This document shows, one piece after another, positions 202 to 12,683 of a stretch of 13,661 nucleotides of DNA (position 1 is its first letter; each line of letters begins with the position of its first letter). A program made the translations under genes and the position numbers. The notes below the pieces were generated by a model. It did not search any database. It saw only the letters and a program-made list of their open reading frames with translations, and was not told where the DNA came from. Origin of the DNA: Sphingobacterium griseoflavum (GTDB lineage Bacteria > Pseudomonadota > Gammaproteobacteria > Pseudomonadales > Cellvibrionaceae); assembly GCA_052039425.1 (NCBI GenBank), contig JBQGED010000156.1:1-13661 (forward strand), in the 5' to 3' direction.

Positions 202-3200
202 TCAGCTCGGCTTCGGATCAGGCTTGCGCGGTTCGCGTAATTGTTTTTTCTGCTCCGCCAATTCCTTTTGAATTTTGAGTTCGATATCCGCCAGCTGCTT
301 GGAGATGTCCTGCATTTTGTAATGGGTACGCAGATCGATTTCCAGCTTTTTATCCATACTGCGCACAATCGGATACAGGCTCTGCTCGATGGACGCGGTT
401 AATGTCTCCAGCAATTTATCGAGGCCGGGCACCGGCTGGTTGATCACTTCCACATTGGGGCGATTGGCGGCAATCGTGTTTTGGATTTTGCCGACCAGGT
501 CGAGCAGAAGTTTTTGCTGCTCTTCCTGACGACGTTTCTCCACTTTTGCGTCGCTTTCTGTGGTACTCGGTGCGCGCGCGGTTTCTGCCAAGTCGCGCAC
601 GCCGCCGACGAGATCAGCGAGTTGCACCACGATTTTACTGCCGGTATCCGCGTCGTCCCCGCCCATGGCTTTGTTGCGCAGAAAATCCGCTTTGATCTGC
701 TCCCAGCGGGCTTTTTGTTCCGCCGTGAGCGCGCCGCGAATTTCCGCCAGTTTCAGTAGATTTTCCTCCGCACCGGAAGTCAGTAATTGCGCTTCGCCGA
801 GATAGTGATCGGCGATCATCTGCTGCAGCTCCTGCTCGTTCATCACCGACGCAATCTTTTCCGCCATCTTGTTCATATTGCGATAACTGCCCTGCAATTT
901 GAACGGCGGTTCTGTGCGGTATTTTTCCGCCTGTGCCGCGGAAACGATGTACTGGCGATTCACCTTCATAACGATATCCCGCACCATAAATAGCTTGCGC
1001 AGCACATCGACAATTTCGCTGACTTCCGCCGCGCTGTAGCTGTGGGATAAATCGGTGGTGGCGATATTTTCGCCCTGCGCCATTTTGACAAACTTGTACA
1101 GATCCTGCAGATCCCGCGTCGCGAGCGGTGCGAGAACCGGATTGGAAGTGAGGCAGTTTTCGATATAGCTCAGCTCAAACTGTTCTTCCATGCCGCCGAG
1201 AATATCACCGAGGTTATAAATATCCGCGCGGTTGGCCAGCATATCCGGAATTTTGAACACCTCACCGGATTCCGTATAAGGGTTGCCCGCCATCACCACG
1301 CAGAATTTGCGTCCGCGCATATCGTAGGTCTTGGTTTCGCCGCGCCAAACGCCCTCGATACGGCGGGTGCCGTCACACAGGGAAATAAATTTCTGCAGAA
1401 ATTCCGGATGGGTGTGCTGAATATCATCGAGATAGAGCATCACGTTATTGCCCATCTCCAACGCCAGATTGAGCTTGTTCAACTCCTGGCGCGCAGTGGC
1501 GTTGGGCGCCTGCGCGGGATCGAGGGACAGCACATCGTGACCGAGCGCCGGGCAGTTAATGCGCATAAAAATCAGCCCCAGGCGATTGGCCACATATTCC
1601 ATCAAAGTGGTTTTACCGTAGCCCGGTGGCGAGATCATCATCAACAGACCCATAAGGTCCGAGCGCTTATTTTCGCCGACCGTACCCATTTGCTTGGCGA
1701 GGTTATCGCCGATAATCGGCAAATAGGATTCGGTAATCAGCCAGTTGCGCACAAATGAGGTGAGCGGCCGCGCCTTAAAATCTTGCAGGCGCAGCTGGCG
1801 GCGCTGGCCTTCGACAAACTGCTGGCGCGCGGCGAGAAAACGGCGATAGGCTGGAATAAATTCTCTGCGGTGGCGCTCCACCTTTTCCAAAAAGGCATCC
1901 ACCGACAATGACAGACTGCGCTCTTTGATCAATGCATGCTCACCGAGCAGACCCTCAATGCGAAATTCCAGATCGATCTGAGTCATTCTGCGGTCGAGGC
2001 GCTGATCGGCATTGAGCAACGCTATGGCTTCAGGAATATAGCGACGCAAATGCTGCAAGCCGCGATTTTCCACCATGGCGGAAAACCAAGCCTGGGATAG
2101 ATCCCAACGGGCGGAGGGCAATCCAACCAATTTATCCAACGCGCTTTGATAGCGACGCCAGGCCGCATCGTCCAAGGAGCGGCGCAATTCCTCCGTCAAT
2201 ATCTGCGCATAGCGGCTGCCAATAAATTCCAGCCGTTCGCGGCCCAATTCCAATACCAGATATTCGGCGGCGCGCACCCTTGTCAGCGCATTGATCGGCA
2301 GTGGATGCGCTTCGACAAATGCCGCCATAGCCGCTTGAATTTCCCGCGCAAGAATATCCGCCGCTTGCTGGCTGCCAAAGACACGCTGCATATGCGCAGC
2401 GGACTGCGCCCGTTCGCTCCAGGTTTGCCAATTCATAGGAGTTTTGATTTGCGCGGAAAAGGATTCCAGATTGGCCCAGAATTTCTGCGCAAAACCGCGA
2501 CTCAATGGATCAAAGCGCAATAAATCCGCCTGTTCAAGCGCTGGCAATAACGTTTGCAGAATCAGCGCGGCATCGTGATCGTGAATACCTTTTTCATAGC
2601 CTTCGCGGTAACGCTGGGCGGCATAATCCCGCACCAAGCGTTGCATGGCAGCCGAACCGAGCAAGGCACTTTTGAGCTGCTCACTATTGAGCCCGTCAGT
2701 ATTGTGCTCTGCGGCGTAAATGATGCTGGCGGCAAGATATTCCGCCCGATAAATATCCGGGCTTTCCGACTCCAAGGTCACGGTCCAAAACGCTTTGAGC
2801 TCATTCAAAGCCGGGTCGTCGACCTGCTGGTAATATTCCGTACCGGTGAGATGGAGATACAGGGAATCCTGGCGCGGAATCAGGGTGAGATCCAATTCCT
2901 GCGTATTGACGCTGAATTTATGCCGTGGCCCGAGTTTGACCACATTGCCGCCGGCTTCAAATAAATCGCTTTTATCACGCAGGGAGCGCGCGCCTTGATC
3001 GCGAATACTTTTGAATTTCGCCTCCACGTCATCCGCTTTGACGGCGTTATCCAGTTCGCGCAACTGGGCGACAAATTCGCGCACCTTTTGCACCATGGCG
3101 TCGGCTGCGAAAAACGTATTCAGCTGCTGCGCGTCGGTAAATTTCTGCGCGCGCCGTTCGATGCTGGTGAGCACCCGCGACGCAGCATCCACCACTGCCT

Positions 3201-5523
3201 GCGCCTTGCGCTGGCGCTCGTCGAGCAATTGCTGTTTGTGTGCCTCAAAGGTCTCGTAAATTTCCTCGCGCTTGGCAACTATATCGGCGAGAAATTCCTC
3301 GCGGTCGGCAAACTGGCTTTCCAATTCCTCCAACTGCACCAGCAGGCGTGCCATTTGTTCATCGCAAGCCTCGGGTGTGGAAGCCAGACCTATGGCATTG
3401 GCGATGCTTTGGGACAGCAATTTAAATTGCGCGCCGAACTGCGCCACCGCCTCCGCCGAACCAAAACTTTTTTGTTTGTGCCCCGCCTGTGCTTTGCATT
3501 GATTCAACTTGGCGTATACCGCCGCTATGCCATCAATAATGCGCGTATGGACCGTCGCGTCGCCCACTTTGAGCGTAGCCAATAATTCGGTCAACAAATC
3601 CAGACCGGAAGCCATGCTGTCAATCTGCTGCAACAGCGGCGCAAGTTCAGCGACGGTCGTAACAACGTCCAGATCGCGATAAAACTGCTCGATGCGCTCC
3701 TCGTAGGGGCGCAAGGCGCGCTCGTCCGCGAGAAAAGCCACGGTTTTCTCACTGATGGCATTTTGCTGTTCCAACAGCTGCTGTTCCAGTTGCTCGATGC
3801 GAGCGACGTCAATGTAGCGGTGATCGCGAATGGTGGCGAGATGACCGCGCTGGCGGCGGATTGCATCCAGTGCGCGTACGTGATCGTCGGTGGTTTCCCA
3901 ATTCGATGTTCGGATAAACGCCAGCAGCTGATTTTGCTGCTGCTCCGCGCCCGCCAGTGCTTGCACGGATTGCTGGCGAATATTTTCGACTTTTTCAAAT
4001 TCGTCGATGGCCAGTTCGGCGGTTTTGCCAATTTCCGACAACAGCGGTTTCAAGCTGGCAGTGTCGGCGTCGCCAATCCAATAATGATCATCAAAAATCT
4101 TCAGTGCGGCTTTGCGCAATTCTTCATAGAGACGCAAAGTCACCGATTGGTTATCGATAATGCGCGCTACCGCAAATAAATCCGCGATGCCACGCACCAG
4201 CTCCGCATTGCCGACGCGTCCCAGAAATGTCTGTTTGGGCGGTTCGCGGCTGGCATGCTCCGCACTGAAAAACGGCGTGCGCCACACCTGCATGGGATGA
4301 ACCCTTGTCGGCTCCGGCACCGCGGCAAAAATGACCAGCGTGCCGTCTTCGGCCAAGGCATAACCATCACCGTAAATCGGATTCTGCAGGGTTTTGTTAA
4401 TCATGTTGTAGGCGAAAAGGCCCACCAACCCCGCCTTGGCCTCATAAAATACGTAGAGCACATCCTCGCCGTTGGGCGAGCGGATCATGCGGCTGAACAA
4501 CATGTCACGACTGCCGTCATCAAACGTTTTGTACTGTCCCGTCTGCAAATAATAGCCTCCGGGAAAAACAATGCCGTGATCCTCCGGCAACTGCACACAG
4601 GACGCGCCTATGGCGTCTATGCGTTGAACTTCGCGGGTGAGCTTATTGAAAACCAGATAGCGCCACGCGGTTTCGCGGTAAGGCAGAATTTTCAGCAGAA
4701 TCAAACTGCCGAGTTCGGCATACCAGAATTCACCATCGTCGATAGACTGATTGAGATCTTCCACCGGTTCGCGATAAATACCGAGACCGCTCTCGGTATT
4801 GTTTTCGATTTTTACCGTGAGGTCGCCACCGACGGTTTCAACGAAAATCTGATTGAGAATATTGACGTGTGGATGTTTGCCGTTGACCACCTGATCGCGA
4901 GTGGTTTTAGTCCATTCGAAATCAAATGCCGGTGGCAGTTGAATATCGCGTTCACCGCGATTGTCGATGTAGATTACCTGCTTCGCATCCGCAGACAGAT
5001 TCCAACGAAACACCCGCATGTCGCTGCGCCGTTCGCCAATCTGGAATGCTGCCAATAATTTGCCGTTGCGCACTGCGAGCTGCACCAAATGCGTATGCTT
5101 GTAGTAGCGGTACAACTCTTCGAAGTCTCGCTGAAACGCAGGTTCAGTGAGAAAAGTGCCGGCGAGAGGAATTTCCTGCATCGCGGCATCATCACCGCTC
5201 CCTTCAAGCCGGAATAATGCAAAAACGTCGGCGACGCGAGTTTCGGTTTTCAAGCCGAGAAAAACGTTATAGCCGAACAGCAAAACATTCCCGACCTGAA
5301 CTATGTCGCGAGGAATGCAATTATTTTCCGTGCGCACGCGGACGCGCGCTGCGACCGCCATTTCCGAATGGCCGAATTCCCCCAGCCGCGCCTGGTTGAG
5401 TGCTGAGGTGAGGATTTTGAGTTGTTCGCCCTGCTCGGTCAGACGCCGCCGAATGATGTCATAGGCACCACCTTCCGCCACCGCTTGGTCAAATTGAGAA
5501 TTATCCGGATCTATGACCGCCAT
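202..5523 (-). CDS. Giant (about 1773 aa) multidomain AAA+ ATPase: N-terminal beta-rich domain, long coiled-coil region, MoxR/AAA_5-type ATPase core, C-terminal helical tail
   Basis: Continuous ORF. The ORF track starts at a TTG (5565). The first ATG is 14 codons downstream (plus-strand CAT at 5521-5523), preceded by AGGGA 7 nt upstream, and is taken as the start. AAA+ motifs by eye: Walker A ISPPGYGKTTL (codons at about nt 1609-1638), Walker B VMLYLDDIQ, sensor/second region VVMAGNP…IPDMLANRADI. These align motif-for-motif with MoxR (GVPGVGKT / LLADEINRA / VIATQNP…LDRF). Residues about 470-1250 are A/E/Q/R/L-rich helical repeats. Residues about 15-465 are beta-rich (e.g. GDGYALAEDGTLVIFAAVPE). 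Confidence 0.85.
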   Translation of the reverse strand: MAVIDPDNSQFDQAVAEGGAYDIIRRRLTEQGEQLKILTSALNQARLGEFGHSEMAVAARVRVRTENNCIPRDIVQVGNVLLFGYNVFLGLKTETRVADVFALFRLEGSGDDAAMQEIPLAGTFLTEPAFQRDFEELYRYYKHTHLVQLAVRNGKLLAAFQIGERRSDMRVFRWNLSADAKQVIYIDNRGERDIQLPPAFDFEWTKTTRDQVVNGKHPHVNILNQIFVETVGGDLTVKIENNTESGLGIYREPVEDLNQSIDDGEFWYAELGSLILLKILPYRETAWRYLVFNKLTREVQRIDAIGASCVQLPEDHGIVFPGGYYLQTGQYKTFDDGSRDMLFSRMIRSPNGEDVLYVFYEAKAGLVGLFAYNMINKTLQNPIYGDGYALAEDGTLVIFAAVPEPTRVHPMQVWRTPFFSAEHASREPPKQTFLGRVGNAELVRGIADLFAVARIIDNQSVTLRLYEELRKAALKIFDDHYWIGDADTASLKPLLSEIGKTAELAIDEFEKVENIRQQSVQALAGAEQQQNQLLAFIRTSNWETTDDHVRALDAIRRQRGHLATIRDHRYIDVARIEQLEQQLLEQQNAISEKTVAFLADERALRPYEERIEQFYRDLDVVTTVAELAPLLQQIDSMASGLDLLTELLATLKVGDATVHTRIIDGIAAVYAKLNQCKAQAGHKQKSFGSAEAVAQFGAQFKLLSQSIANAIGLASTPEACDEQMARLLVQLEELESQFADREEFLADIVAKREEIYETFEAHKQQLLDERQRKAQAVVDAASRVLTSIERRAQKFTDAQQLNTFFAADAMVQKVREFVAQLRELDNAVKADDVEAKFKSIRDQGARSLRDKSDLFEAGGNVVKLGPRHKFSVNTQELDLTLIPRQDSLYLHLTGTEYYQQVDDPALNELKAFWTVTLESESPDIYRAEYLAASIIYAAEHNTDGLNSEQLKSALLGSAAMQRLVRDYAAQRYREGYEKGIHDHDAALILQTLLPALEQADLLRFDPLSRGFAQKFWANLESFSAQIKTPMNWQTWSERAQSAAHMQRVFGSQQAADILAREIQAAMAAFVEAHPLPINALTRVRAAEYLVLELGRERLEFIGSRYAQILTEELRRSLDDAAWRRYQSALDKLVGLPSARWDLSQAWFSAMVENRGLQHLRRYIPEAIALLNADQRLDRRMTQIDLEFRIEGLLGEHALIKERSLSLSVDAFLEKVERHRREFIPAYRRFLAARQQFVEGQRRQLRLQDFKARPLTSFVRNWLITESYLPIIGDNLAKQMGTVGENKRSDLMGLLMMISPPGYGKTTLMEYVANRLGLIFMRINCPALGHDVLSLDPAQAPNATARQELNKLNLALEMGNNVMLYLDDIQHTHPEFLQKFISLCDGTRRIEGVWRGETKTYDMRGRKFCVVMAGNPYTESGEVFKIPDMLANRADIYNLGDILGGMEEQFELSYIENCLTSNPVLAPLATRDLQDLYKFVKMAQGENIATTDLSHSYSAAEVSEIVDVLRKLFMVRDIVMKVNRQYIVSAAQAEKYRTEPPFKLQGSYRNMNKMAEKIASVMNEQELQQMIADHYLGEAQLLTSGAEENLLKLAEIRGALTAEQKARWEQIKADFLRNKAMGGDDADTGSKIVVQLADLVGGVRDLAETARAPSTTESDAKVEKRRQEEQQKLLLDLVGKIQNTIAANRPNVEVINQPVPGLDKLLETLTASIEQSLYPIVRSMDKKLEIDLRTHYKMQDISKQLADIELKIQKELAEQKKQLREPRKPDPKPS

Positions 5524-5577
5524 ATTTTTTCCCTGTATGTGTGCTGCATGGAATGCGGGACTCAATGTGCAGAATCA

Positions 5578-5606
5578 GCGCCGCCACGCTCGCTGCAGGG
5601 CGGCGC
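5578..5606 (-). other. GC-rich hairpin in the 89-nt gap between the flotillin gene and the giant ATPase gene
   Basis: GCGCCGCC (5578-5585) / 13-nt loop / GGCGGCGC (5599-5606). No U-run follows, so it is not a canonical terminator. It could be an intra-operon stability or processing element. Confidence 0.3.
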
Positions 5607-5612
5607 CGGATA

Positions 5613-7586
5613 TTAACCGGCTGTCAAGTCGGTTGCGGAGTTGGTAGCGTTGCCCGTAGCCTTGTGGCCGGTGAGGGAGAGGACGCTTTCCAGAATATTG
5701 GCGATGGTACTGCTCTTGGTGGCAAGGCCATCCACCGCTTTGCCGATGGAAAGCGATTTGGCGAAATTGTCGAAGAAATGCTCTTCACCGCCGACAATAT
5801 CGATTTTCGCTTTCGCCAATGCGGTGGCGAGCACCTCGGCATTTTCCTTGGCAATTTCTTTGCCCGCCTCGATGGACGCAATCGCTTCTTTGAATGCGGT
5901 TTCCAACGTCATGCGGAATTCTTCGTGCTGACGTGTCTGCTCACTCATTTGGCTCATGGCAGTAAATTTATCTTCCAGACCATCGGCCTCTGCCTTGTAT
6001 TTCTCGCGCACCACTTCGGCTTCGGCGATACCCACCTGACGTTTGGCCAGTGCTTCCGACTCGCCGCGCAGCGCGACAACCTTCGCTTCCGCTTCACCGG
6101 TATTTTTGATGACGTTGGCGTCGGCCTCACCTTTGGCCGCAATTACGCGCGCTTCCGCCAGCCCTTCTTTTTCCATAGCGTCGGCCTTGGCTTCCTGCAC
6201 TTTGGCGGCCGCCAGTCCTGGGGCGGCTTGTTCAGCCTGCACACCTTCGGCCATTTTCTTCTTGGCGTCGGCTTCTTTTGCGGCGGCGTCGAGGCGCGCC
6301 TGAGCCAGCGTGGTAATTTCCACAGATTTGTGTTTCGCCGCCAATTCTTCGGCTTCCGCCGCTTTCACCTGTTTGACTTTCTCTTCTTCCGCAGAAGCCT
6401 GAGCTTCCAATACCTGGATTTGGCGGCGGCGATCCGCCTCGGACACTTCGCGCACTTCTTTGATTTTTTCTTCCTCGATGGCGACGGTTTTGTCCACCGC
6501 AACGCGCTCGCGGATCACGTTGGCAATTTCCTTGCGCTCGATTTCGATGGCTTTTTCCGCTTCTATTCGCTGGATTTCCACTTCGCGTTCGCGCGATACA
6601 ATTTCCAGGTCGCGGGCGCGAGTGACTTTTTCCTGCTCGATCACCACAGCGCGCTGGCGATTCTGCTCGGCCACCTCCACTTCGCGCTTCTGATTTTCCG
6701 TCTGTACCAACAGTTCCTGGTCCACTTGAATGGTGGCGGACTGAGCTTTTTTACGCTCCTCTTCCTGCACGCGTTTCGTCTCAGCCTGTTCGCGAGCCTG
6801 AATAGTGGCAATTTCGCGCGCTTGGCGTGCTTCAGCATCTTTTTGCTGACGCTCAAGCTCCAACATGGCTTCCGTGGTTTCCACGTTTTTCTTTTTGATC
6901 GCCAACTCTTCGTCGCGTTCGAGCATATTGGTCTTGATATTCTGCTGCGCGGTCAATTCGGTGATTTTGCGAATACCTTCGGCGTCGAGAATATTGTGTG
7001 GATCAAGCGAGCTTTTCGGCGTCTGCTCGAGATAGTCGATGGCCACGTCCTCCAACACATAACCATTCAAGTCGTTGCCGATCACCTGAATGATTTTGTC
7101 ACGGAAATCCTGCCTGTCTTGAAACAGGCGGACAAATTCAATTTGTTTACCAACAGATTTCAGGGCTTCGGAAAACTTGGCGTTGAACAGCTCATTCACG
7201 GCGTGTTTGTCCGACGCGCGGCTGGCACCCAGCGACTTGGCGACTTTCAGCACGTCTTCCGGGGTTTCATTTACGCGCAGATAAAAAGCGACAGTAATAT
7301 CCGCGCGCATATTGTCGGCACAAATCAGGCCGTCTTTGCCGCGCCTGTCCACCTCAAGCGTGATCAGCGATATTTTCATCAATTCTTTTTTATGAATAAC
7401 AGGCCACACCCACGCACCGGTAAAAAATACCTTCGGGCGGGAAGTGGTGTCGTTCTTGATCAACGCAGTCCCCTGCTCGACCTTGATATAAAAGGCCTTG
7501 GCCAAAGCGGCAATCGCGATCAGCGCAAGAATGAGGATACCGACCACGGTCAATATCATCAGGAAAACTGGGGTGGATTCAGACAT
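5613..7586 (-). CDS. SPFH/band-7 flotillin-family membrane protein (YqiK-like), 657 aa, with an unusually long Ala/Glu/Lys-rich coiled-coil
   Basis: ATG at 7584-7586 with AAGGAG 5-10 nt upstream. N-terminal TM helix (VFLMILTVVGILILALIAIAALA). SPFH core motifs resemble E. coli YqiK (…LITLEVDRRGKDGLICADNMRADITVAFYLRV…). A long EA/KA-rich helical region follows. Stop is TAA at 5613-5615. Confidence 0.9.
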   Translation of the reverse strand: MSESTPVFLMILTVVGILILALIAIAALAKAFYIKVEQGTALIKNDTTSRPKVFFTGAWVWPVIHKKELMKISLITLEVDRRGKDGLICADNMRADITVAFYLRVNETPEDVLKVAKSLGASRASDKHAVNELFNAKFSEALKSVGKQIEFVRLFQDRQDFRDKIIQVIGNDLNGYVLEDVAIDYLEQTPKSSLDPHNILDAEGIRKITELTAQQNIKTNMLERDEELAIKKKNVETTEAMLELERQQKDAEARQAREIATIQAREQAETKRVQEEERKKAQSATIQVDQELLVQTENQKREVEVAEQNRQRAVVIEQEKVTRARDLEIVSREREVEIQRIEAEKAIEIERKEIANVIRERVAVDKTVAIEEEKIKEVREVSEADRRRQIQVLEAQASAEEEKVKQVKAAEAEELAAKHKSVEITTLAQARLDAAAKEADAKKKMAEGVQAEQAAPGLAAAKVQEAKADAMEKEGLAEARVIAAKGEADANVIKNTGEAEAKVVALRGESEALAKRQVGIAEAEVVREKYKAEADGLEDKFTAMSQMSEQTRQHEEFRMTLETAFKEAIASIEAGKEIAKENAEVLATALAKAKIDIVGGEEHFFDNFAKSLSIGKAVDGLATKSSTIANILESVLSLTGHKATGNATNSATDLTAG

Positions 7587-7627
7587 GGTAGTGCTCCTTT
7601 CTTAATGAAACTTTATTTTGAAAATCC

Positions 7628-7661
7628 GCTAATTGTGGAAATCTGCTAATTGTGGAAATCT
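7628..7661. repeat. Perfect 17-bp tandem duplication (GCTAATTGTGGAAATCT x2) straddling the stop codon of the NfeD/YqiJ-like gene
   Basis: Copy 1 is at 7628-7644 and copy 2 at 7645-7661, followed by a partial third start (GCT). The downstream (higher-coordinate) copy encodes the C-terminal EADFHN* of the minus-strand gene. The other copy lies in the 3' intergenic region before the flotillin RBS. Confidence 0.85.
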
Positions 7662-8308
7662 GCTTCGGAGACGACGCGATATACGTTTTCGCCCGCGACA
7701 TATTCCAGCAGTACGACTTTATCGCCGCGCTTAAAACTTTCATCCTTATAGGCGCGAACTTTGACGATCAACCCCGCCCCGCCGTCTTCAACATAGGCCT
7801 CGCCGAAATTGCGATTGACTTCACCTGTGCGCACTGTTGCCACTTGACCGAGGACCTGCTTCTGAACCTCCTGGTTGGTCGCAACGAAAATTGGGCGTAA
7901 AGGTTTGATCAATACGGCGGTTATTAAGGCAGCGACATACAGCGCCGCGATAATGACCGGTATTCCGAGCAGCAGCTGCAACCAGCGGAAAGGCACAAAG
8001 GGGTAAATAAAAAACACCACCAGAAAACACAGCATCCAACCGCTCAGGGAAATCAGGGAGATAACGATGGTGATTGGCACGCCGTTGAGGCCGAGGCGAA
8101 AAAGCAATCCGGAGAAGACATTCAAACTCGTCACTGAATCGGCGGCGTCCATATCCAGATCAAATGCCTCAATGCCGACAAATCCCAACATGGTCAACAG
8201 CCAATACGCCACCGACAAAATCAGGAAAAAAGTAAAGAACACCGTAGGAAAGGAAAAAATGATGTTAAGAAAAATATCCATTTGATCGCTCAGCAATATG
8301 GCAAACAT
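7646..8308 (-). CDS. NfeD-family inner-membrane protein (YqiJ-like): multi-TM N-terminal part plus C-terminal OB-fold beta domain
   Basis: ATG at 8306-8308 preceded by AGGAAGGA. Three to four hydrophobic segments (FFTFFLILSVAYWLLTMLGFVGI; LISLSGWMLCFLVVFFIYPF; LLLGIPVIIAALYVAALITAVLI). C-terminal GQVATVRTGEV…GDKVVLLEY is typical of the short NfeD OB-fold. The position immediately upstream of a flotillin gene matches the yqiJ-yqiK arrangement. Confidence 0.8.
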   Translation of the reverse strand: MFAILLSDQMDIFLNIIFSFPTVFFTFFLILSVAYWLLTMLGFVGIEAFDLDMDAADSVTSLNVFSGLLFRLGLNGVPITIVISLISLSGWMLCFLVVFFIYPFVPFRWLQLLLGIPVIIAALYVAALITAVLIKPLRPIFVATNQEVQKQVLGQVATVRTGEVNRNFGEAYVEDGGAGLIVKVRAYKDESFKRGDKVVLLEYVAGENVYRVVSEADFHN

Positions 8309-8426: not shown

Positions 8427-9113
8427 TTATTTCTTTTGTTTCAGCCGCTCTAGGATGTCCTGGGCGCTGGAGCCGTTGGAAACGATTCCCGCTTTCTCAA
8501 GTTTGCGCTGCAGATGGTCTTCGCTGGTTTCCTGAGCGAGTTCCGTGGCGGCTTTCATTTGCGCGGATTTCTGCGCTTGTTTTTCTTTAATGCGTTCAAG
8601 AGATTCCATAGCGGTCTGCAATTTGGAATTGGAGCCACTGTGACGCTCGGCCACTGCGGCCTGGGCGCGCTGAACATTTTCCGTGGCTTTTACCGTATCC
8701 ACCTGCTGTTTCAGACGCTTGATATTCTGTTCGGCCTGCTTGACCGCCTCGCGCAGCTGATTGGCGCTGCCGGCAAACTCCTGAGCCATCGCCTCTTCAT
8801 TGCGCAACTGATTCTCGAAATCCGCAATTTTTTGTGCGACCTCCAACGCGAGCGCATCTTCGCCTTTGCTCAACGCCTGGGTCGCGTAACCCTCGTGCTT
8901 AGCAATTTGCTCGCGCAATTGCTGGCACTTTTCCTCCGCCAGTTTTTGCCGCGCGATTATGGCCGCGAGGGAGTCCTTGCTCTGGCGCAACTCCTCCGAC
9001 GCATCGCGCACTTCCTGGTCGAGAATTCTCAACGCCTGGGTGTCCACGATCGCCTCGCCCACTTCCGTGGCTCCACCGCGCAGGGCGGTAATCATTTTGG
9101 CCCATATATTCAT
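8427..9113 (-). CDS. PspA/IM30 (ESCRT-III superfamily) protein, YjfJ-like, 228 aa
   Basis: The ORF track begins at an upstream ATG (9140). I place the start at the ATG at 9111-9113 (MNIWAKMITALRGG…) because GGAG lies about 7 nt upstream and overlaps the stop codon of the preceding gene. The sequence is all-helical and heptad-rich. The C-terminal motifs VKATENVQRAQAAV… and AGIVSNGSSAQDILERLK closely match E. coli YjfJ as I recall it (VVKATEAMQRAQ…AGIGGSNKSSAQDVLARLQ). Confidence 0.85.
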   Translation of the reverse strand: MNIWAKMITALRGGATEVGEAIVDTQALRILDQEVRDASEELRQSKDSLAAIIARQKLAEEKCQQLREQIAKHEGYATQALSKGEDALALEVAQKIADFENQLRNEEAMAQEFAGSANQLREAVKQAEQNIKRLKQQVDTVKATENVQRAQAAVAERHSGSNSKLQTAMESLERIKEKQAQKSAQMKAATELAQETSEDHLQRKLEKAGIVSNGSSAQDILERLKQKK

Positions 9114-9123
9114 AGTCGATCTC

Positions 9124-9774
9124 CTAGGCTTGCGCCTCATTGGGGGTTTTCAAAAAATCCGCATAGGCCTCAGTCGCCTGAATGACGTTCGACGCGAGCA
9201 CCTCAATTTCAAACACTACATTGGCGAGTTCGGAGGCGGAACTCAGGGCACCAAACATATGGTAGTAGTCTTTGCCGTGCGCGAGCGTGTCCAGACTGAT
9301 GGTGGAGAGCGGAAAATATTTATGAGTCCGCAACACCGCATCGTTGAGCCCAACCTGATCAATCACATCGTCCGCAGACCAGAGCACCGACTCTGCAATA
9401 ATCTGATCTCCCGCCACTGTCACAAATACGGGCAGATCGCCGTACTCGTGCATGGTGATATGGAGCGCCGGTTCGACGCCGTCGATCAACGCCAAGGTCG
9501 CCTTGTGCTCGCGGAACAGAGAGGCTCCCTGCAGCGCATCGAACAAAGATTCGGTCGTCCAAGTGTTGGCTGATTCGATCATCATTTTTCCTCCGATGGT
9601 GGCCAAGTCGAGCGTATCGACGGTTTCGCGCAATTGCTTTTCCACATGGGCAAGCAACTTCGCATTTTCCGGGCGAATCCAAACCTCCTTTTTCACCAGA
9701 CCGCTGTCGCGCAGTCGCTTGCGGAATTCCCTCTGGTAGTGGGCGGACGATTTCGCTTTCATGAGACGAACCAT
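9124..9774 (-). CDS. Two-part protein: N-terminal about 63-aa DUF3018-like (ribbon-helix-helix/antitoxin-like) segment in frame with a DUF2170/YjfI-like (YbjN-type chaperone-like) domain; first gene of the operon
   Basis: ATG at 9772-9774 (AAGAAGG just upstream). The N-terminal segment KSSAHYQREFRKRLRDSGLVKKEVWIRPENAKLL resembles DUF3018-type small DNA-binding proteins as I recall them (…SAERMRAYRARLRAAGLRPVQIWVPD…). The C-terminal about 150 aa (…YHMFGALSSASELANVVFEIEVLASNVIQATE…) fits the YjfI/DUF2170 family, which sits directly upstream of yjfJ in E. coli. There is an internal in-frame ATG-ATG at 9585/9582 with a perfect GGAGG 4 nt upstream. Stop is TAG at 9124-9126. Confidence 0.6.
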   Translation of the reverse strand: MVRLMKAKSSAHYQREFRKRLRDSGLVKKEVWIRPENAKLLAHVEKQLRETVDTLDLATIGGKMMIESANTWTTESLFDALQGASLFREHKATLALIDGVEPALHITMHEYGDLPVFVTVAGDQIIAESVLWSADDVIDQVGLNDAVLRTHKYFPLSTISLDTLAHGKDYYHMFGALSSASELANVVFEIEVLASNVIQATEAYADFLKTPNEAQA

Positions 9775-9779
9775 ACCTT

Positions 9780-9839
9780 CTTACATGTAATCTTGTAAAT
9801 ATCATCACATGTAATATTTTGGAATAGATTACATGTGAT
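9780..9839. promoter_or_regulatory. Three operator-like copies of a 12-bp palindrome (consensus ATTACATGTAAT) with centres exactly 24 bp apart, directly upstream of the minus-strand operon
   Basis: Copies at 9780-9791 (CTTACATGTAAT), 9804-9815 (ATCACATGTAAT) and 9828-9839 (ATTACATGTGAT). Each has one mismatch to the perfect palindrome. ACATGT cores are at 9783, 9807 and 9831. The proximal copy ends 6 bp from the start codon and overlaps the RBS. The region is AT-rich. Confidence 0.55.
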
Positions 9840-9940
9840 ACCAAACGGCGAGTTTACACAGATTTCCTCACCCTGTTGCTTCTTATATATCCCTAAGGCA
9901 AAACCCACTGTTGTCGCTACGGCTGCGACGGGCGTAAACC

Positions 9941-9969
9941 TTGACAGCTAGGGACCGTCCCCCTAGCAT
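9941..9969 (+). promoter_or_regulatory. Candidate sigma70 promoter for ispB
   Basis: Perfect -35 TTGACA (9941-9946), 17-bp spacer, -10 TAGCAT (9964-9969), about 35 nt before the ispB ATG. Divergent from the minus-strand operon. Confidence 0.4.
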
Positions 9970-10005
9970 CCACCCCCAATTTCCGACCAACCAAGATTCC
10001 CGCCG

Positions 10006-10968
10006 ATGCTGCCGTTTCAACAAGCTGTCGCCACCGACTTGTCTTTGGTGAACGACATGATCATCAAAGAACTGCATTCCGAAGTCGGCCTGGTGGAAAA
10101 TATAGGCCACTACATAGTGGATGCCGGCGGCAAACGCCTTCGCCCCATCCTGGTTCTACTCACCGCACGCTGCCTGGAATATCCCAAACAGCGCCATATC
10201 GATCTGGCGACCATCATCGAATTTATTCACACCGCCACACTGCTGCACGACGATGTGGTCGATATGTCAGCGCTGCGCCGTGGCCGCCCCACGGCCAACG
10301 CCCAATTCGGTAATGCGCCGAGTGTGCTGGTGGGTGACTTCCTTTATTCCCGCGCGTTTCAGATGCTGGTGCGCCTGGGCAGCATGGAGATCATGGCGAT
10401 CCTGTCCGACACCACCAACGTGATTTCCGAAGGTGAAGTCCAACAGCTGATTAACGCCAAAAACCCTTCGGTGAGCGAGCAGGACTATCTGACCGTTATC
10501 CATAAAAAGACGGCAGCCTTGTTTGAGGCGGCATGTCGCACCGGGGCGGTTCTGGCTGGAGCCGGGGAAGAGCAGAAACAGGCGGCTTTTTTGTTTGGCC
10601 ATCACCTGGGGCTGGCATTTCAGTTGATCGACGATCTGTTGGATTACGAAGGCGATCAGGCGGCGCTAGGAAAAAACATTGGCGACGACTTGGCAGAGGG
10701 CAAACCGACACTGCCGTTGATTCACGCCATGGCACACACCGAAGGCGCCGAACAGGAGCTGATCCGCGACGCCATCACCAACGGCAGGGTCGATCATCTG
10801 GCCGATATTGTGGCGCTGATCCGTCGCTGCGGCAGTCTCGACTACACCCGGCGCAAAGCCCAGGAGCACGCTCAAAAGGCGGAACTCGCTCTGGGCGCAT
10901 TGCCCGACAACTCCTGGCGCAAGGCGATGGAGGAACTCGCCCGCTTTTCGGTTACCAGAGCCTATTGA
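10006..10968 (+). CDS. ispB: Octaprenyl-diphosphate synthase (trans-polyprenyl diphosphate synthase)
   Basis: 320 aa and near-collinear with E. coli IspB. Shared features: GGKRLRP, first DDxxD LLHDDVVD, second DDxxD QLIDDLLDY, GKNIGDDLAEGKPTLP, CGSLDYTRRKA. Confidence 0.93.
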   Translation: MLPFQQAVATDLSLVNDMIIKELHSEVGLVENIGHYIVDAGGKRLRPILVLLTARCLEYPKQRHIDLATIIEFIHTATLLHDDVVDMSALRRGRPTANAQFGNAPSVLVGDFLYSRAFQMLVRLGSMEIMAILSDTTNVISEGEVQQLINAKNPSVSEQDYLTVIHKKTAALFEAACRTGAVLAGAGEEQKQAAFLFGHHLGLAFQLIDDLLDYEGDQAALGKNIGDDLAEGKPTLPLIHAMAHTEGAEQELIRDAITNGRVDHLADIVALIRRCGSLDYTRRKAQEHAQKAELALGALPDNSWRKAMEELARFSVTRAY

Positions 10969-10994
10969 GACATCACCAGCCACGACAACAATTC

Positions 10995-11020
10995 CGCGGG
11001 GATGCTGACCAAGCCCCGCG
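10995..11020 (+). other. GC hairpin in the ispB-pgi intergenic region
   Basis: CGCGGGG (10995-11001) / 12-nt loop / CCCCGCG (11014-11020), with no T-run. Possibly a partial terminator or stability element. Confidence 0.2.
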
Positions 11021-11039
11021 CCCACCCCTGGAGAAATCC

Positions 11040-12683
11040 ATGTCCTACAGCAGACTTTCCGACAAATACACCGTTTGGCCGCAACTGGAGCAACACCGCG
11101 AATCCTGGAAAAGCCAGACACTCGCCAACCTGTTCCGCGATGACGGCAATCGCTGCGCGCGCTTCAGCGTCTCTGCCGCCGGCATCGAGCTGGACTACTC
11201 GAAAAACCACGTCACCACCGAAACCCTGCAACTTCTGCTCGAGGTCGCCCGCCAGGCGGATTTGAGCGGCGCTATCAAAAAGCTACTCAAAGGCGAGCAC
11301 GTCAACGGCACCGAAGACCGCCCCGCTCTGCACACCGCGCTGCGCCACACTGGTACACCGGTGACCCCAGAGCAAAAAGCCGTAGCAGAAACCCTGGACA
11401 AGATGGCTGGCCTGATTACCGCCGTACATGAGGGTCAGTGGACCGGCTACACCGGCCAGCGCATCACCGACGTGATCAATATTGGTATCGGCGGTTCCGA
11501 CCTGGGTCCGCGCATGGTGACCAAGGCGCTGACGCCCTATTTGAACGCAGCCGTTAACGTACACTTCGTAGCGAATATCGACGGCGCCGAGCTCTCCGAC
11601 ACCCTGGCCAAGCTCGATCCCGCCAGCACCCTGTTTATAGTCGCATCCAAATCCTTCTCCACCCAGGAAACACGGGAAAACGCCCTCAGTGCCCGCACCT
11701 GGATGTTGGATGCCGGCTGCCCTCAGCAAGAACTAAGAAAGCACTTTGTCGCCATTTCATCCCGGGTCGATAAAGCGGTGGAATTCGGCATAGCGCAGGA
11801 AAACGTCTACCCGATCTGGGACTGGGTCGGCGGTCGTTATTCCCTTTGGTCCGCCATCGGCATGTCCATTGCCTTTGCCGTGGGCATGGACAACTTCAAC
11901 CGTCTGCGCGCAGGCGCAGAGGCCATGGATAAACATTTCGCGGAGGCTCCGCTGGAGAAGAACCTGCCGGTCCTTATGGGGCTGCTGATGTTTTGGTATA
12001 GCGAGTTCATGGGCTCCAGCACGCAGGCGATCCTGCCTTACGCCCATCACTTGAACCTGCTGCCGTCTTACCTGCAGCAATTGGAGATGGAAAGCAACGG
12101 CAAGAGCGTGACCCGCGACGGCAACCCGGTGGACTACCCTACTGGTGCCATCGTATGGGGTACCGAAGGCACCAACGGCCAGCACTCGTTTCACCAACTG
12201 CTGCATCAAGGTACCAGCCTTGTACCCATCGACTTTATCGCCACGCTGAAAGGTCACGATGAGTTGAAACATCAACACCGCCTGCTATTCGCCAACTGCG
12301 TGGCGCAGAGCCAGGCGCTGCTGACCGGGCGCAATCTGGATATGGCAAAGACCGAGCTGAAAGCGCAAGGCTACAGCGAACAGGAGATCGCCTTCCTGGC
12401 GCCGCACAAGGTTCATCCAGGTAATCGCCCCAGCAACACCATGGTGATGGAAAAGCTGACTCCAGAAACCCTCGGTGCGTTGATCGCCGCCTATGAGCAC
12501 AAGGTGTACACCCTCGGCGTGCTGCTGGACATCAACTCCTTCGACCAATGGGGCGTGGAGCTGGGCAAACTGCTCGGCACTCACGTCAATATCGCCATTG
12601 AAACCACCGATATCCCCGGCGACTGGGATTCCTCCACCCAGCATCTGATCCGCCGTTTCTGCAGCGTCAATTCCGACCTCTAG
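11040..12683 (+). CDS. pgi: Glucose-6-phosphate isomerase
   Basis: Start at ATG 11040 (MSYSRLSDKY…), GGAG 8 nt upstream. The ORF track extends it upstream to 10533, but that extension overlaps ispB. 547 aa, with PGI hallmarks: IGIGGSDLGP, FIVASKSFSTQET, GGRYSLWSAIG, LEMESNGK. Confidence 0.93.
   Translation: MSYSRLSDKYTVWPQLEQHRESWKSQTLANLFRDDGNRCARFSVSAAGIELDYSKNHVTTETLQLLLEVARQADLSGAIKKLLKGEHVNGTEDRPALHTALRHTGTPVTPEQKAVAETLDKMAGLITAVHEGQWTGYTGQRITDVINIGIGGSDLGPRMVTKALTPYLNAAVNVHFVANIDGAELSDTLAKLDPASTLFIVASKSFSTQETRENALSARTWMLDAGCPQQELRKHFVAISSRVDKAVEFGIAQENVYPIWDWVGGRYSLWSAIGMSIAFAVGMDNFNRLRAGAEAMDKHFAEAPLEKNLPVLMGLLMFWYSEFMGSSTQAILPYAHHLNLLPSYLQQLEMESNGKSVTRDGNPVDYPTGAIVWGTEGTNGQHSFHQLLHQGTSLVPIDFIATLKGHDELKHQHRLLFANCVAQSQALLTGRNLDMAKTELKAQGYSEQEIAFLAPHKVHPGNRPSNTMVMEKLTPETLGALIAAYEHKVYTLGVLLDINSFDQWGVELGKLLGTHVNIAIETTDIPGDWDSSTQHLIRRFCSVNSDL

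Follow-up and report, generated by a model that had tools for sequence, protein, structure and literature searches.

How many proteins does a single reading frame on the minus strand of this stretch of DNA encode, and does one of them control the operon that begins with it? The stretch, called the window below at its full length of 13,661 nucleotides (nt), is contig JBQGED010000156.1 of assembly GCA_052039425.1, and the frame (9124–9774) is followed directly by a gene of the PspA family. An initial annotation had read it as a DUF3018-like, DNA-binding-type segment joined in frame to a DUF2170/YjfI-like domain, with a strong internal Shine-Dalgarno (SD) sequence and ATG at the junction, and had left three options: (a) a fusion protein, (b) two products of one frame, namely the full-length protein and an internally initiated DUF2170 protein, or (c) a short protein only, preceded by a stop-free leader. 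Our analysis identifies the gene as bacA, and we consider it probable that it encodes two nested in-frame proteins, of which the long form (BacA-L) would repress its own operon.

The minus-strand open reading frame (ORF) of 216 codons is present as described, and so is the in-frame fusion of the N-terminal segment to DUF2170 (PF09938), which Pfam places at residues 71–208 with an E-value of 1.9e-50 and 170.7 bits against a cutoff of 27. The NCBIfam equivalog model NF050185, "biofilm formation regulator BacA", matches residues 5–210 (model positions 1–204 of 206), scoring 305.2 bits where 300 are required. Since this curated cutoff is passed, the protein is by this measure an orthologue of Pseudomonas aeruginosa BacA (PA3732 / PA14_16140); the margin is slim, as expected for an orthologue from outside Pseudomonas. 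The true start codon is ATG 9762 (MKAKSS...), as in the orthologues and in the database gene call on the same contig (P0001). The start assumed initially (ATG 9774–9772) is four codons off and falls within the hexamer TATGGT (9775–9770), the -10 element of the promoter described below.

The comparison at the DNA level covered 80 gene sequences, i.e. 79 fetched loci, mostly from Cellvibrionales, Oceanospirillales, Pseudomonadales and Methylococcales, plus the window; the list of homologues comprised the best 120 matches, and the unfused DUF2170 case examined was that of Escherichia coli. Among the best 120 homologues nearly all are 207–218 amino acids (aa) long and, bar a few upstream-extended calls and some calls of 152–153 aa, they open with MKAKSSAHYQRE(Y/F)RKRLRE.GLVKKEVWI.PENAK.L...EK.LR. 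In alignments of 24 and of 87 sequences invariant columns are packed most densely in this N-terminal "head", and the linker of 15–25 residues that follows it varies freely in length and sequence. The near-invariant positions of the head in ~240 homologues include K4, S6, A7, Y9, Q10, R11, R14, R16, R18, G21, K24, K25, E26, W28 and P31; its substitutions are conservative ones at the amino-acid level, all but one of the 80 gene sequences preserve it intact, and it alone scores 78 bits against the first 48 positions of NF050185. No other part of the protein is as well conserved, from which we conclude that the head is translated, so that the N-terminal segment is conserved and the fusion protein of option (a) is made as far as that option goes. 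The exception is a metagenome-assembled genome (MAG) of the Cellvibrionaceae with 90% identity (L007:4001-4638, JANPZW010000008.1), which has a frameshift within the head region (MKAKSSAHYQREFRKRLRDSGLVKKGGMDSPG...), so that NCBI annotates only a 153-aa short form there; the frameshift may have arisen in assembly or may mark a natural variant that makes the short form only. We considered the 152–153-aa calls as head-less genes and rejected them as such, as the sole one read at the DNA level is this frameshifted contig.

These observations dispose of option (c), according to which only the short DUF2170 protein is made from an untranslated in-frame leader. It could draw on the older Pseudomonas annotations (PAO1, PA14), some of the 152–153-aa calls and the crystallised construct, all of which use the short ORF, and on an internal SD that is far stronger than anything ahead of the first ATG. 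Yet no protein segment of the family is better conserved than the supposed leader, its frame is open in 79 of 80 sequences and its substitutions are conservative, amino-acid-level ones; the NCBI curated BacA model includes it; the 153-aa call of L007 comes from a frameshifted MAG contig; and the transcription start of P. aeruginosa PA14 lies exactly on the long-form AUG. We regard this explanation as hardly credible.

The domain common to both predicted forms is well defined. The model from AlphaFold (predicted local distance difference test, pLDDT, 82 overall) shows a disordered linker followed by a confident DUF2170 domain, which superposes on PDB entry 8q8o of P. aeruginosa BacA with template modelling scores of 0.94–0.97 and a root-mean-square deviation of 1.1–1.5 A, followed by YbjN, AmyR and chaperones of type III secretion systems (T3SS). 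The 146-residue chain of 8q8o, the only solved relative, matches residues 69–210 only (E-value 1.5e-38) and lacks the head. Another structural neighbour, 5z38, is CesT in complex with CsrA; as bacA mRNA is an RsmA target in P. aeruginosa (see below), a contact between the BacA and RsmA proteins could be imagined as an echo of that complex, but we treat this as a coincidence at present.

Where the DUF2170 domain begins, the window reads GGAGG-AAAA-ATGATG (9594–9580), all in frame. Among 79 sequences 73 have GGAG 5–8 nt (63 times exactly 8) ahead of an in-frame ATG, replaced by GTG in one species. The glycine codon that forms this internal SD is GGA in all 71 sequences where it is in frame, whereas GGA makes up 90 of the 704 other glycine codons of the same genes (12.8%); the base before it is A in 60 of 71, against ~23% A at third codon positions overall; and the residues that flank the glycine make up 22 different x-G-x contexts. 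In Pseudomonas and Lysobacter the same SD is written AAGGAGG or AAGGAG by Lys-Glu codons. The codon bias, the variable peptide contexts and the alternative coding together indicate selection on the nucleotides AGGAG-N-ATG and not on the peptide. In the otherwise variable linker Gly and Met are at least 90% conserved, with a Met 3–12 residues ahead of the domain Trp in 225 of 226 long-form homologues. Across the long ORFs of these loci, GGAG is found at such a distance from ~2% of in-frame ATGs, and the majority of these belong to bacA itself. The annotation of P. aeruginosa and the crystallised chain begin at the equivalent internal codon.

The internal SD and start are conserved beyond what the protein requires, as expected of a nested isoform, and this constraint at synonymous sites strongly implies an internally initiated DUF2170 protein, BacA-S, in favour of option (b). 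The start suggested at first, ATG 9585, is in frame after the GGAGG and also usable; the conserved GGAG-N8-ATG spacing points rather to the second ATG (9582) as the one that could be preferred. The species with GTG, an Alteromonadaceae MAG (L029), has this codon 8 nt from GGAG, read as Val in the long form; this is how a start codon would be expected to vary, unlike a Met kept for structural reasons.

A different explanation for the same motif is that only the long fusion matters and that the internal AGGAG-N8-AUG is kept as a CsrA/RsmA site, or as a site of ribosome pausing or loading that, on a leaderless mRNA with poor initiation, protects expression of the downstream operon. The core A-GGA-G does fit the GGA core of CsrA/RsmA sites, six orthologues manage without the motif, and RsmA binding has been established experimentally by others in P. 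aeruginosa: in the passage of PMC4066749 that cites Brencic and Lory (2009), RsmA is said to target PA3732 directly, at several sites surrounding the annotated (internal) SD. A pausing or binding site, however, needs no in-frame start at a fixed spacing, which is nevertheless kept in 73 of 79 sequences, once as GTG; a ribosome loaded at the internal SD would still produce the short protein; and where RsmA represses at an SD, this usually points to a functional ribosome-binding site. The P. aeruginosa linker (L082:6140-6185) has about five GGA motifs in ~45 nt around the internal SD, which fits multi-site binding of RsmA. As the window has only two GGA motifs near its internal SD, control by RsmA/CsrA may be specific to some lineages. 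Neither a structure nor a known RNA family stands out: the first 223 nt of the mRNA show no unusual folding (z = 0.18), which led us to abandon a structured switch at the internal SD as an explanation, and Rfam gave no match in 9050–10050 at E <= 1. On balance we think it improbable that the motif serves the long form alone.

No SD precedes ATG 9762, the start codon of the long form. The upstream region of the window contains TTTACA (9799–9794), an 18-nt spacer, TATGGT (9775–9770), seven nt and then the ATG. The layout common to the orthologous loci is an (A)TTACATGTAA(T) palindrome, a TTGACA-like hexamer, a 17-nt spacer with a second palindrome, TAnnnT, 5–8 nt and ATG. The long-form start codon is ATG in all 80 sequences, and in 74 of them the -10 element of the best sigma-70-like match ends 5–8 nt ahead of it. 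Given this conserved distance and the invariant ATG, we infer that the long form of the window is translated from a leaderless mRNA, a feature that the initial annotation had missed. For P. aeruginosa, where the promoter reads TTGAAA-17-TAGTGT-6 nt-ATG, the leaderless start is experimentally supported by published mapping of 5' ends: for the PA14_16140-16150 unit Wurtzel 2012 (PMC3460626, Table S3) lists a transcription start at 1374599, an annotated start at 1374776 and a 5' untranslated region ("5'UTR") of 177 nt. The long-form ATG of P. aeruginosa lies exactly 177 nt (59 codons) 5' of the internal ATG used by the PA14 annotation, which means that the mapped start is the A of the long-form AUG; the mapped transcription unit ends at the end of bacB.

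The same data bear on the proposal that a sigma-54 promoter and an enhancer-binding protein drive the operon, with the short form made from an internal transcript of its own. Wallart et al. proposed a -24/-12 site for P. aeruginosa bacA by sequence inspection, and the window holds one weak match, TGGAAAAGCAATTGCG (9631–9646, minus strand, 3 mismatches), which lies 118 nt into the coding sequence (CDS) and follows from the conserved codons of V-E-K-Q-L-R. The search for a conserved sigma-54 site returned scattered matches in only 13 of 80 sequences; the four at +118 follow from the E-K-Q-L-R codons, and the P. aeruginosa locus has none at <=3 mismatches. Moreover, the sole start listed for the PA14 unit is at the long-form ATG, downstream of TTGAAA-17-TAGTGT, and no enhancer-binding protein gene is found in the operon or adjoining it. 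We judge control by sigma-54 very unlikely, and the initial suggestion of a PspF-independent way of controlling a PspA-family gene fits the absence of a conserved sigma-54 site.

What could control this promoter instead is suggested by the palindromes around it, which had been noticed in the window before and proved to be real. With <=1 mismatch allowed, TTACATGTAA occurs at only three sites in the whole window (O1–O3), against 0.15 expected, and none of 200 shuffled sequences reached three. In the 80 sequences 185 sites lie within 160 nt upstream of the gene, against 9 in the other 640 kb, an enrichment of ~1000-fold. In nearly every species 2–4 copies surround the promoter, with their centres at -22/-23, -44/-46 and -64/-70 and a spacing of 21–24 bp: an O1-type site at -20 to -24 is present in ~72 of 80 sequences, an O2-type site at -42 to -48 in nearly all 80, and an O3-type site at -64 to -70 in ~27 of 80. 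The palindromes overlap the sigma-70-type promoter, and P. aeruginosa (66% GC) and Lysobacter (67% GC) share their layout. The headless yjfI of E. coli lacks TTACATGTAA motifs upstream. In P. aeruginosa a bacA::Tn mutant was found experimentally to accumulate BacB-F 6- to 13-fold (PMC10948618). The conserved palindromes over the promoter and this overproduction support the idea of autoregulation put forward in the initial annotation.

Whether the head is the module that recognizes these palindromes depends on what the head is. The head of the window protein gave no match to PF11455 ("Antitoxin MazE-like", formerly DUF3018) at E <= 1, and hence falls short of the gathering threshold of 22 bits. 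Its relatives are rare (only 70 in 1.84 billion representative proteins) and include free-standing proteins of 46–70 aa; PF11455 is found below threshold in 5 of 10 of the free-standing relatives and in 9 of 22 head-type sequences overall, and a profile built from the free-standing relatives picks up proteins annotated with PF11455. Thus the DUF3018-like character assigned earlier holds as a sub-threshold link through intermediates and not as a Pfam match of the window head itself: the relationship appears real but remote and does not amount to membership. The NCBIfam model UrfF, "plasmid repression protein F", matches the head weakly (E-value 1e-3), which we take as a hint only. Pfam matches of the head alone to Ser_hydrolase and PheRS_DBD1 were weak and were dismissed as spurious, as was the best match of the head profile among PDB sequences, 7cay (E-value 0.005), a short basic stretch in a protease. 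Foldseek comparison of the full model with the PDB was dominated by the DUF2170 domain and was uninformative on the head. In the AlphaFold model the head consists of a helix (6–19), an unpaired extended segment (20–30, VKKEVWI) and a second helix (31–45), which could be a permuted ribbon-helix-helix (RHH) arrangement; no RHH family was matched by the head sequence in the Pfam search.

Some of the free-standing relatives (46–75 aa; L085:3001-3204, L086:3001-3228 and L087:3001-3141) are encoded amid small ORFs beside genes of a Sak-type recombinase, DnaB or SNF2. These settings look like phage early or replication regions, which suggests that the head derives from a small phage or plasmid regulator. 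No toxin-like gene, of the MazF or CcdB kind, was found beside bacA in the window or in related loci.

We infer DNA binding by the head from four observations: it is strongly basic, it is linked to antitoxins, it is strictly found together with the palindromes, and the mutant overproduces BacB-F. It could be argued instead that some other, unlinked transcription factor recognizes the TTACATGTAA palindromes and that the head has a different task, e.g. binding RNA, BacB or the membrane: the head has no above-threshold match to any DNA-binding family, and the DUF2170-fold relatives YbjN, AmyR and ExsC regulate without a DNA-binding domain of their own. Against this, motif and head occur together at every locus examined, from Cellvibrionales to Xanthomonadales, and E. 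coli yjfI is without both; the motif is almost absent from the 640 kb of flanking DNA, which speaks against a global regulator; the free-standing relatives of the basic head link it to PF11455 antitoxins, members of which stand beside MazF-like toxins; and loss of bacA raises expression of the operon. We therefore find an unlinked factor unlikely, though somewhat less so than a purely long-form function of the internal motif.

Several observations weigh against an autorepressing long form accompanied by a short one. The best PF11455 score among the head relatives is 21.1 bits against the required 22 (E-value 3e-4), i.e. below the threshold, and applies to relatives only. The head profile found no credible match among all PDB sequences, and the order helix-extended-helix in the model, which is one of a monomer, differs from the strand-helix-helix of canonical RHH proteins, to which the initial annotation had likened the segment. 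The derepression in P. aeruginosa was seen in a MAR2xT7 transposon mutant, and the cassette could read into the downstream genes. In a few close relatives of the window the -10 element reads TAAGGT, which is a possible weak SD for the long form. Finally, the internal SD is missing in six orthologues, four of them from Methylococcales (L025, L059, L060, L078) and the others being L028 and L034, which makes the short form common but not universal. These six loci (the first four labelled Methylococcales/Crenotrichaceae) keep the head, the operators and the promoter geometry, some of them also being without the Met; by their sequences they would be natural cases in which only the long form is made.

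Taking the evidence together, two nested proteins with autorepression by the longer one is the explanation that we hold to be probable, and we envisage it as follows. The sigma-70-type promoter would place the 5' end of the mRNA on the A of ATG 9762 or no more than 1 nt from it, leaving the mRNA without a leader. Leaderless initiation would yield BacA-L (212 aa), composed of the basic head, the disordered linker and the dimeric DUF2170 domain. BacA-L would bind the TTACATGTAA palindromes at -23 (in the promoter spacer), -47 (just upstream of the -35 element) and -71, occlude the promoter and repress its own operon including bacB, with no need for PspF or sigma-54. On the same mRNA the internal SD GGAGG would direct initiation at ATG 9582 or 9585, giving BacA-S, the DUF2170 dimer by itself, the counterpart of the P. 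aeruginosa protein that was crystallised. Leaderless initiation is usually inefficient in Gammaproteobacteria, for which reason BacA-L should be scarce. BacA-S would be the more abundant partner that does not bind DNA, e.g. a partner of BacB; its presence and amount in cells, like this role, are deduced from the features described above.

The two forms might also stand in opposition. BacA-L would then be the repressor and BacA-S a built-in anti-repressor in a ratio switch for a PspA-family membrane-stress operon, the L:S ratio setting the level of expression. The DUF2170 domain would let BacA-S form heterodimers with BacA-L, or the two forms would compete for BacB, an interaction partner of BacA according to an AlphaFold2 prediction (PMC13092808), and the ratio would be set by the balance of leaderless and SD-led translation and by CsrA/RsmA at the internal SD. 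The titration of BacA-L by BacA-S is speculation, and we see the switch as a whole as a tentative idea with a modest chance of being right. If it were, the Gac/Rsm lifestyle switch would be tied directly to the expression of bac and PspA, which could explain the accumulation of Bac proteins in biofilms.

The coordinates of bacA, its regulatory elements and the other genes of the operon are collected in the table.

Table. Features of the bacA operon in the window (strand left empty for the palindromic sites)
Feature	Position	Strand	Basis or remark
bacA, complete CDS of the long form, stop codon included	9124..9762	-	Database gene call P0001, 100% identical, 212 aa
O3, distal operator-like palindrome	9829..9838		TTACATGTGA on the + strand, TCACATGTAA on the gene strand; centre ~71 nt upstream of ATG 9762
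O2, operator-like palindrome	9805..9814		TTACATGTGA on the gene strand; just upstream of -35; centre ~47 nt upstream of ATG
O1, proximal operator-like palindrome	9781..9790		Perfect TTACATGTAA; within the 18-nt -35/-10 spacer; centre ~23 nt upstream of ATG
-35 hexamer TTTACA of the predicted bacA promoter	9794..9799	-	Promoter scan; TTGACA-like hexamers at the same place in orthologous loci
-10 hexamer TATGGT	9770..9775	-	Promoter scan
Long-form start codon (BacA-L, 212 aa) and predicted transcription start (A 9762 or C 9763)	9760..9762	-	Promoter geometry
N-terminal basic head of 46 residues, MKAKSSAHYQREFRKRLRDSGLVKKEVWIRPENAKLLAHVEKQLRE, putative DNA-binding module	9625..9762	-	Densest conserved block of the alignments
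Variable disordered linker with the internal translation-initiation region	9565..9624	-	Alignment variation; pLDDT <50 for residues 53-64
Internal Shine-Dalgarno GGAGG	9590..9594	-	In frame, GGA-GGA = Gly-Gly in the long form
Tandem internal starts ATG-ATG, predicted short form (BacA-S, 149 or 148 aa)	9580..9585	-	ATG 9585-9583, ATG 9582-9580
DUF2170/YjfI domain, T3SS-chaperone-like fold, common to both forms	9151..9564	-	Pfam, PDB 8q8o
bacB, PspA/IM30 family	8427..9113	-	Pfam PspA_IM30, E 1.6e-48; directly 3' of bacA
Rest of the operon	202..8308	-	Membrane protein, coiled-coil protein, DUF3686/DUF7902/AAA+ protein
Membrane protein gene	7646-8308	-	
Coiled-coil protein, 657 aa, occupying the BacD position	5613-7586	-	
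DUF3686/DUF7902/AAA+ protein, 1787 aa	202-5565	-	

The gene order of the window is that of P. aeruginosa (L081/L082), including the bacC-bacE region, and fits the operon class described in PMC11237479; the order bacA-bacB is also found in Lysobacter, and the AGGAG of bacB itself overlaps the stop codon of bacA. The protein of 1787 aa, whose DUF3686 is described as "ATPase involved in DNA repair", is the BacE equivalent that is kept at the end of bac-type operons. The genome loci nearest to bacA of the window are from Marinagarivorans and Saccharophagus MAGs (85–89% identity). Two typical gammaproteobacterial bacA regions carry the labels of Flavobacteriales and Lentisphaeria MAGs (L023 and L032), and these contigs are probably mis-binned. 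On the other side of bacA and in the opposite orientation, a sigma-70-like promoter (TTGACA-17-TAGCAT, 9941–9969, plus strand) precedes a polyprenyl synthetase gene (10006–10968, plus strand). A phosphoglucose isomerase (PGI) gene comes next; the listed ORF (10533–12683) is over-extended at its 5' end, the PGI domain beginning at residue 221.

Of the known systems P. aeruginosa BacA (PDB 8q8o) is the closest, with the same operon, operators, promoter geometry and internal SD; its long form (206 aa) would contain the peptides EVWILPENAAALAGIER and EEDMTEAR, the latter extending across the internal start. It differs in that its SD is coded by Lys-Glu-Glu and that of the window by Gly-Gly, the window copy coming from a Cellvibrionaceae-like marine gammaproteobacterium. 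YjfI of E. coli, encoded by the first gene of yjfIJKLMC, shares the DUF2170 domain (32% identity over 108 residues) and the position directly upstream of a PspA-family gene, but has only 133 aa, starts 2 residues before the domain Trp and lacks the head, the linker and upstream TTACATGTAA sites; its operon is also of another class, with polyamine and peptide-spermidine ligase genes.

The PF11455 antitoxins and the free-standing relatives share R-x-R-L-R-x-x-G-L-V-x-x-E-V-W-I-x-P-E...L with the bacA head, and MazE-like antitoxins usually bind their own operators. Unlike them, the bacA head has no adjacent toxin gene and is fused to a chaperone-like domain, and its closest free-standing relatives are found in phage-like early-gene regions and not in toxin-antitoxin pairs. 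A functional likeness, with no kinship of sequence or fold, exists to the cI repressor of phage lambda, which is translated from a leaderless mRNA when transcribed from PRM and has several spaced palindromic operators (three in all) over its own promoter. The cI gene, however, has a single product, which also activates PRM, whereas bacA would have a second, SD-driven product nested in frame.

Nested isoforms in which the short form lacks an N-terminal functional module are known from the Tn5 transposase and its inhibitor, ClpB 93/79, IF2 alpha/beta and CheA long/short; in Tn5 the short form is without the DNA-binding end and inhibits the long form. In contrast to these cases the two forms of bacA appear to use different routes of initiation on one mRNA, leaderless for the long form and SD-led for the short one. 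With the psp system of E. coli the bac operon shares a PspA-family gene under negative feedback that involves a protein of the same locus; there, PspF is a sigma-54 enhancer-binding activator inhibited by PspA, whereas bacA has a sigma-70-like promoter and a putative repressor encoded by the first gene.

Publications or databases already cover the gene family, the structure of the DUF2170 domain, the finding that bacA acts negatively on its operon, the start of transcription in PA14 and the link to RsmA, and RefSeq annotates the long form. The published work on BacA used only the short form of 146/147 aa, treated it as a DUF2170 protein and proposed a sigma-54 site (PMC10948618); that paper makes no mention of the N-terminal head, DNA binding, palindromes or a leaderless start. 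In the papers searched that mention BacA, PA3732, YjfI or DUF2170 we did not find the head described as a putative DNA-binding module, nor any account of the conserved operators or the nested short form, nor the "177-nt UTR" read as the sign of a leaderless mRNA.

BacA is a named regulator of biofilm formation and virulence in P. aeruginosa whose mode of action has been described as unknown, and its crystal structure, the predictions of its interactions and the proposals for its promoter are all based on the short annotated ORF, so that the present reading has direct consequences for its study. If it is correct, what has been listed as a "177-nt 5'UTR" is coding sequence for a conserved DNA-binding head, an autorepressor at TTACATGTAA operators would simply account for the repression observed in genetic work, and the RsmA site would sit on an internal ribosome-binding site. 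The bac operon would then be an example of a PspA-family operon controlled independently of PspF and sigma-54, and bacA a widely conserved gammaproteobacterial case in which one mRNA, by leaderless and SD-led initiation, gives rise to two nested proteins.

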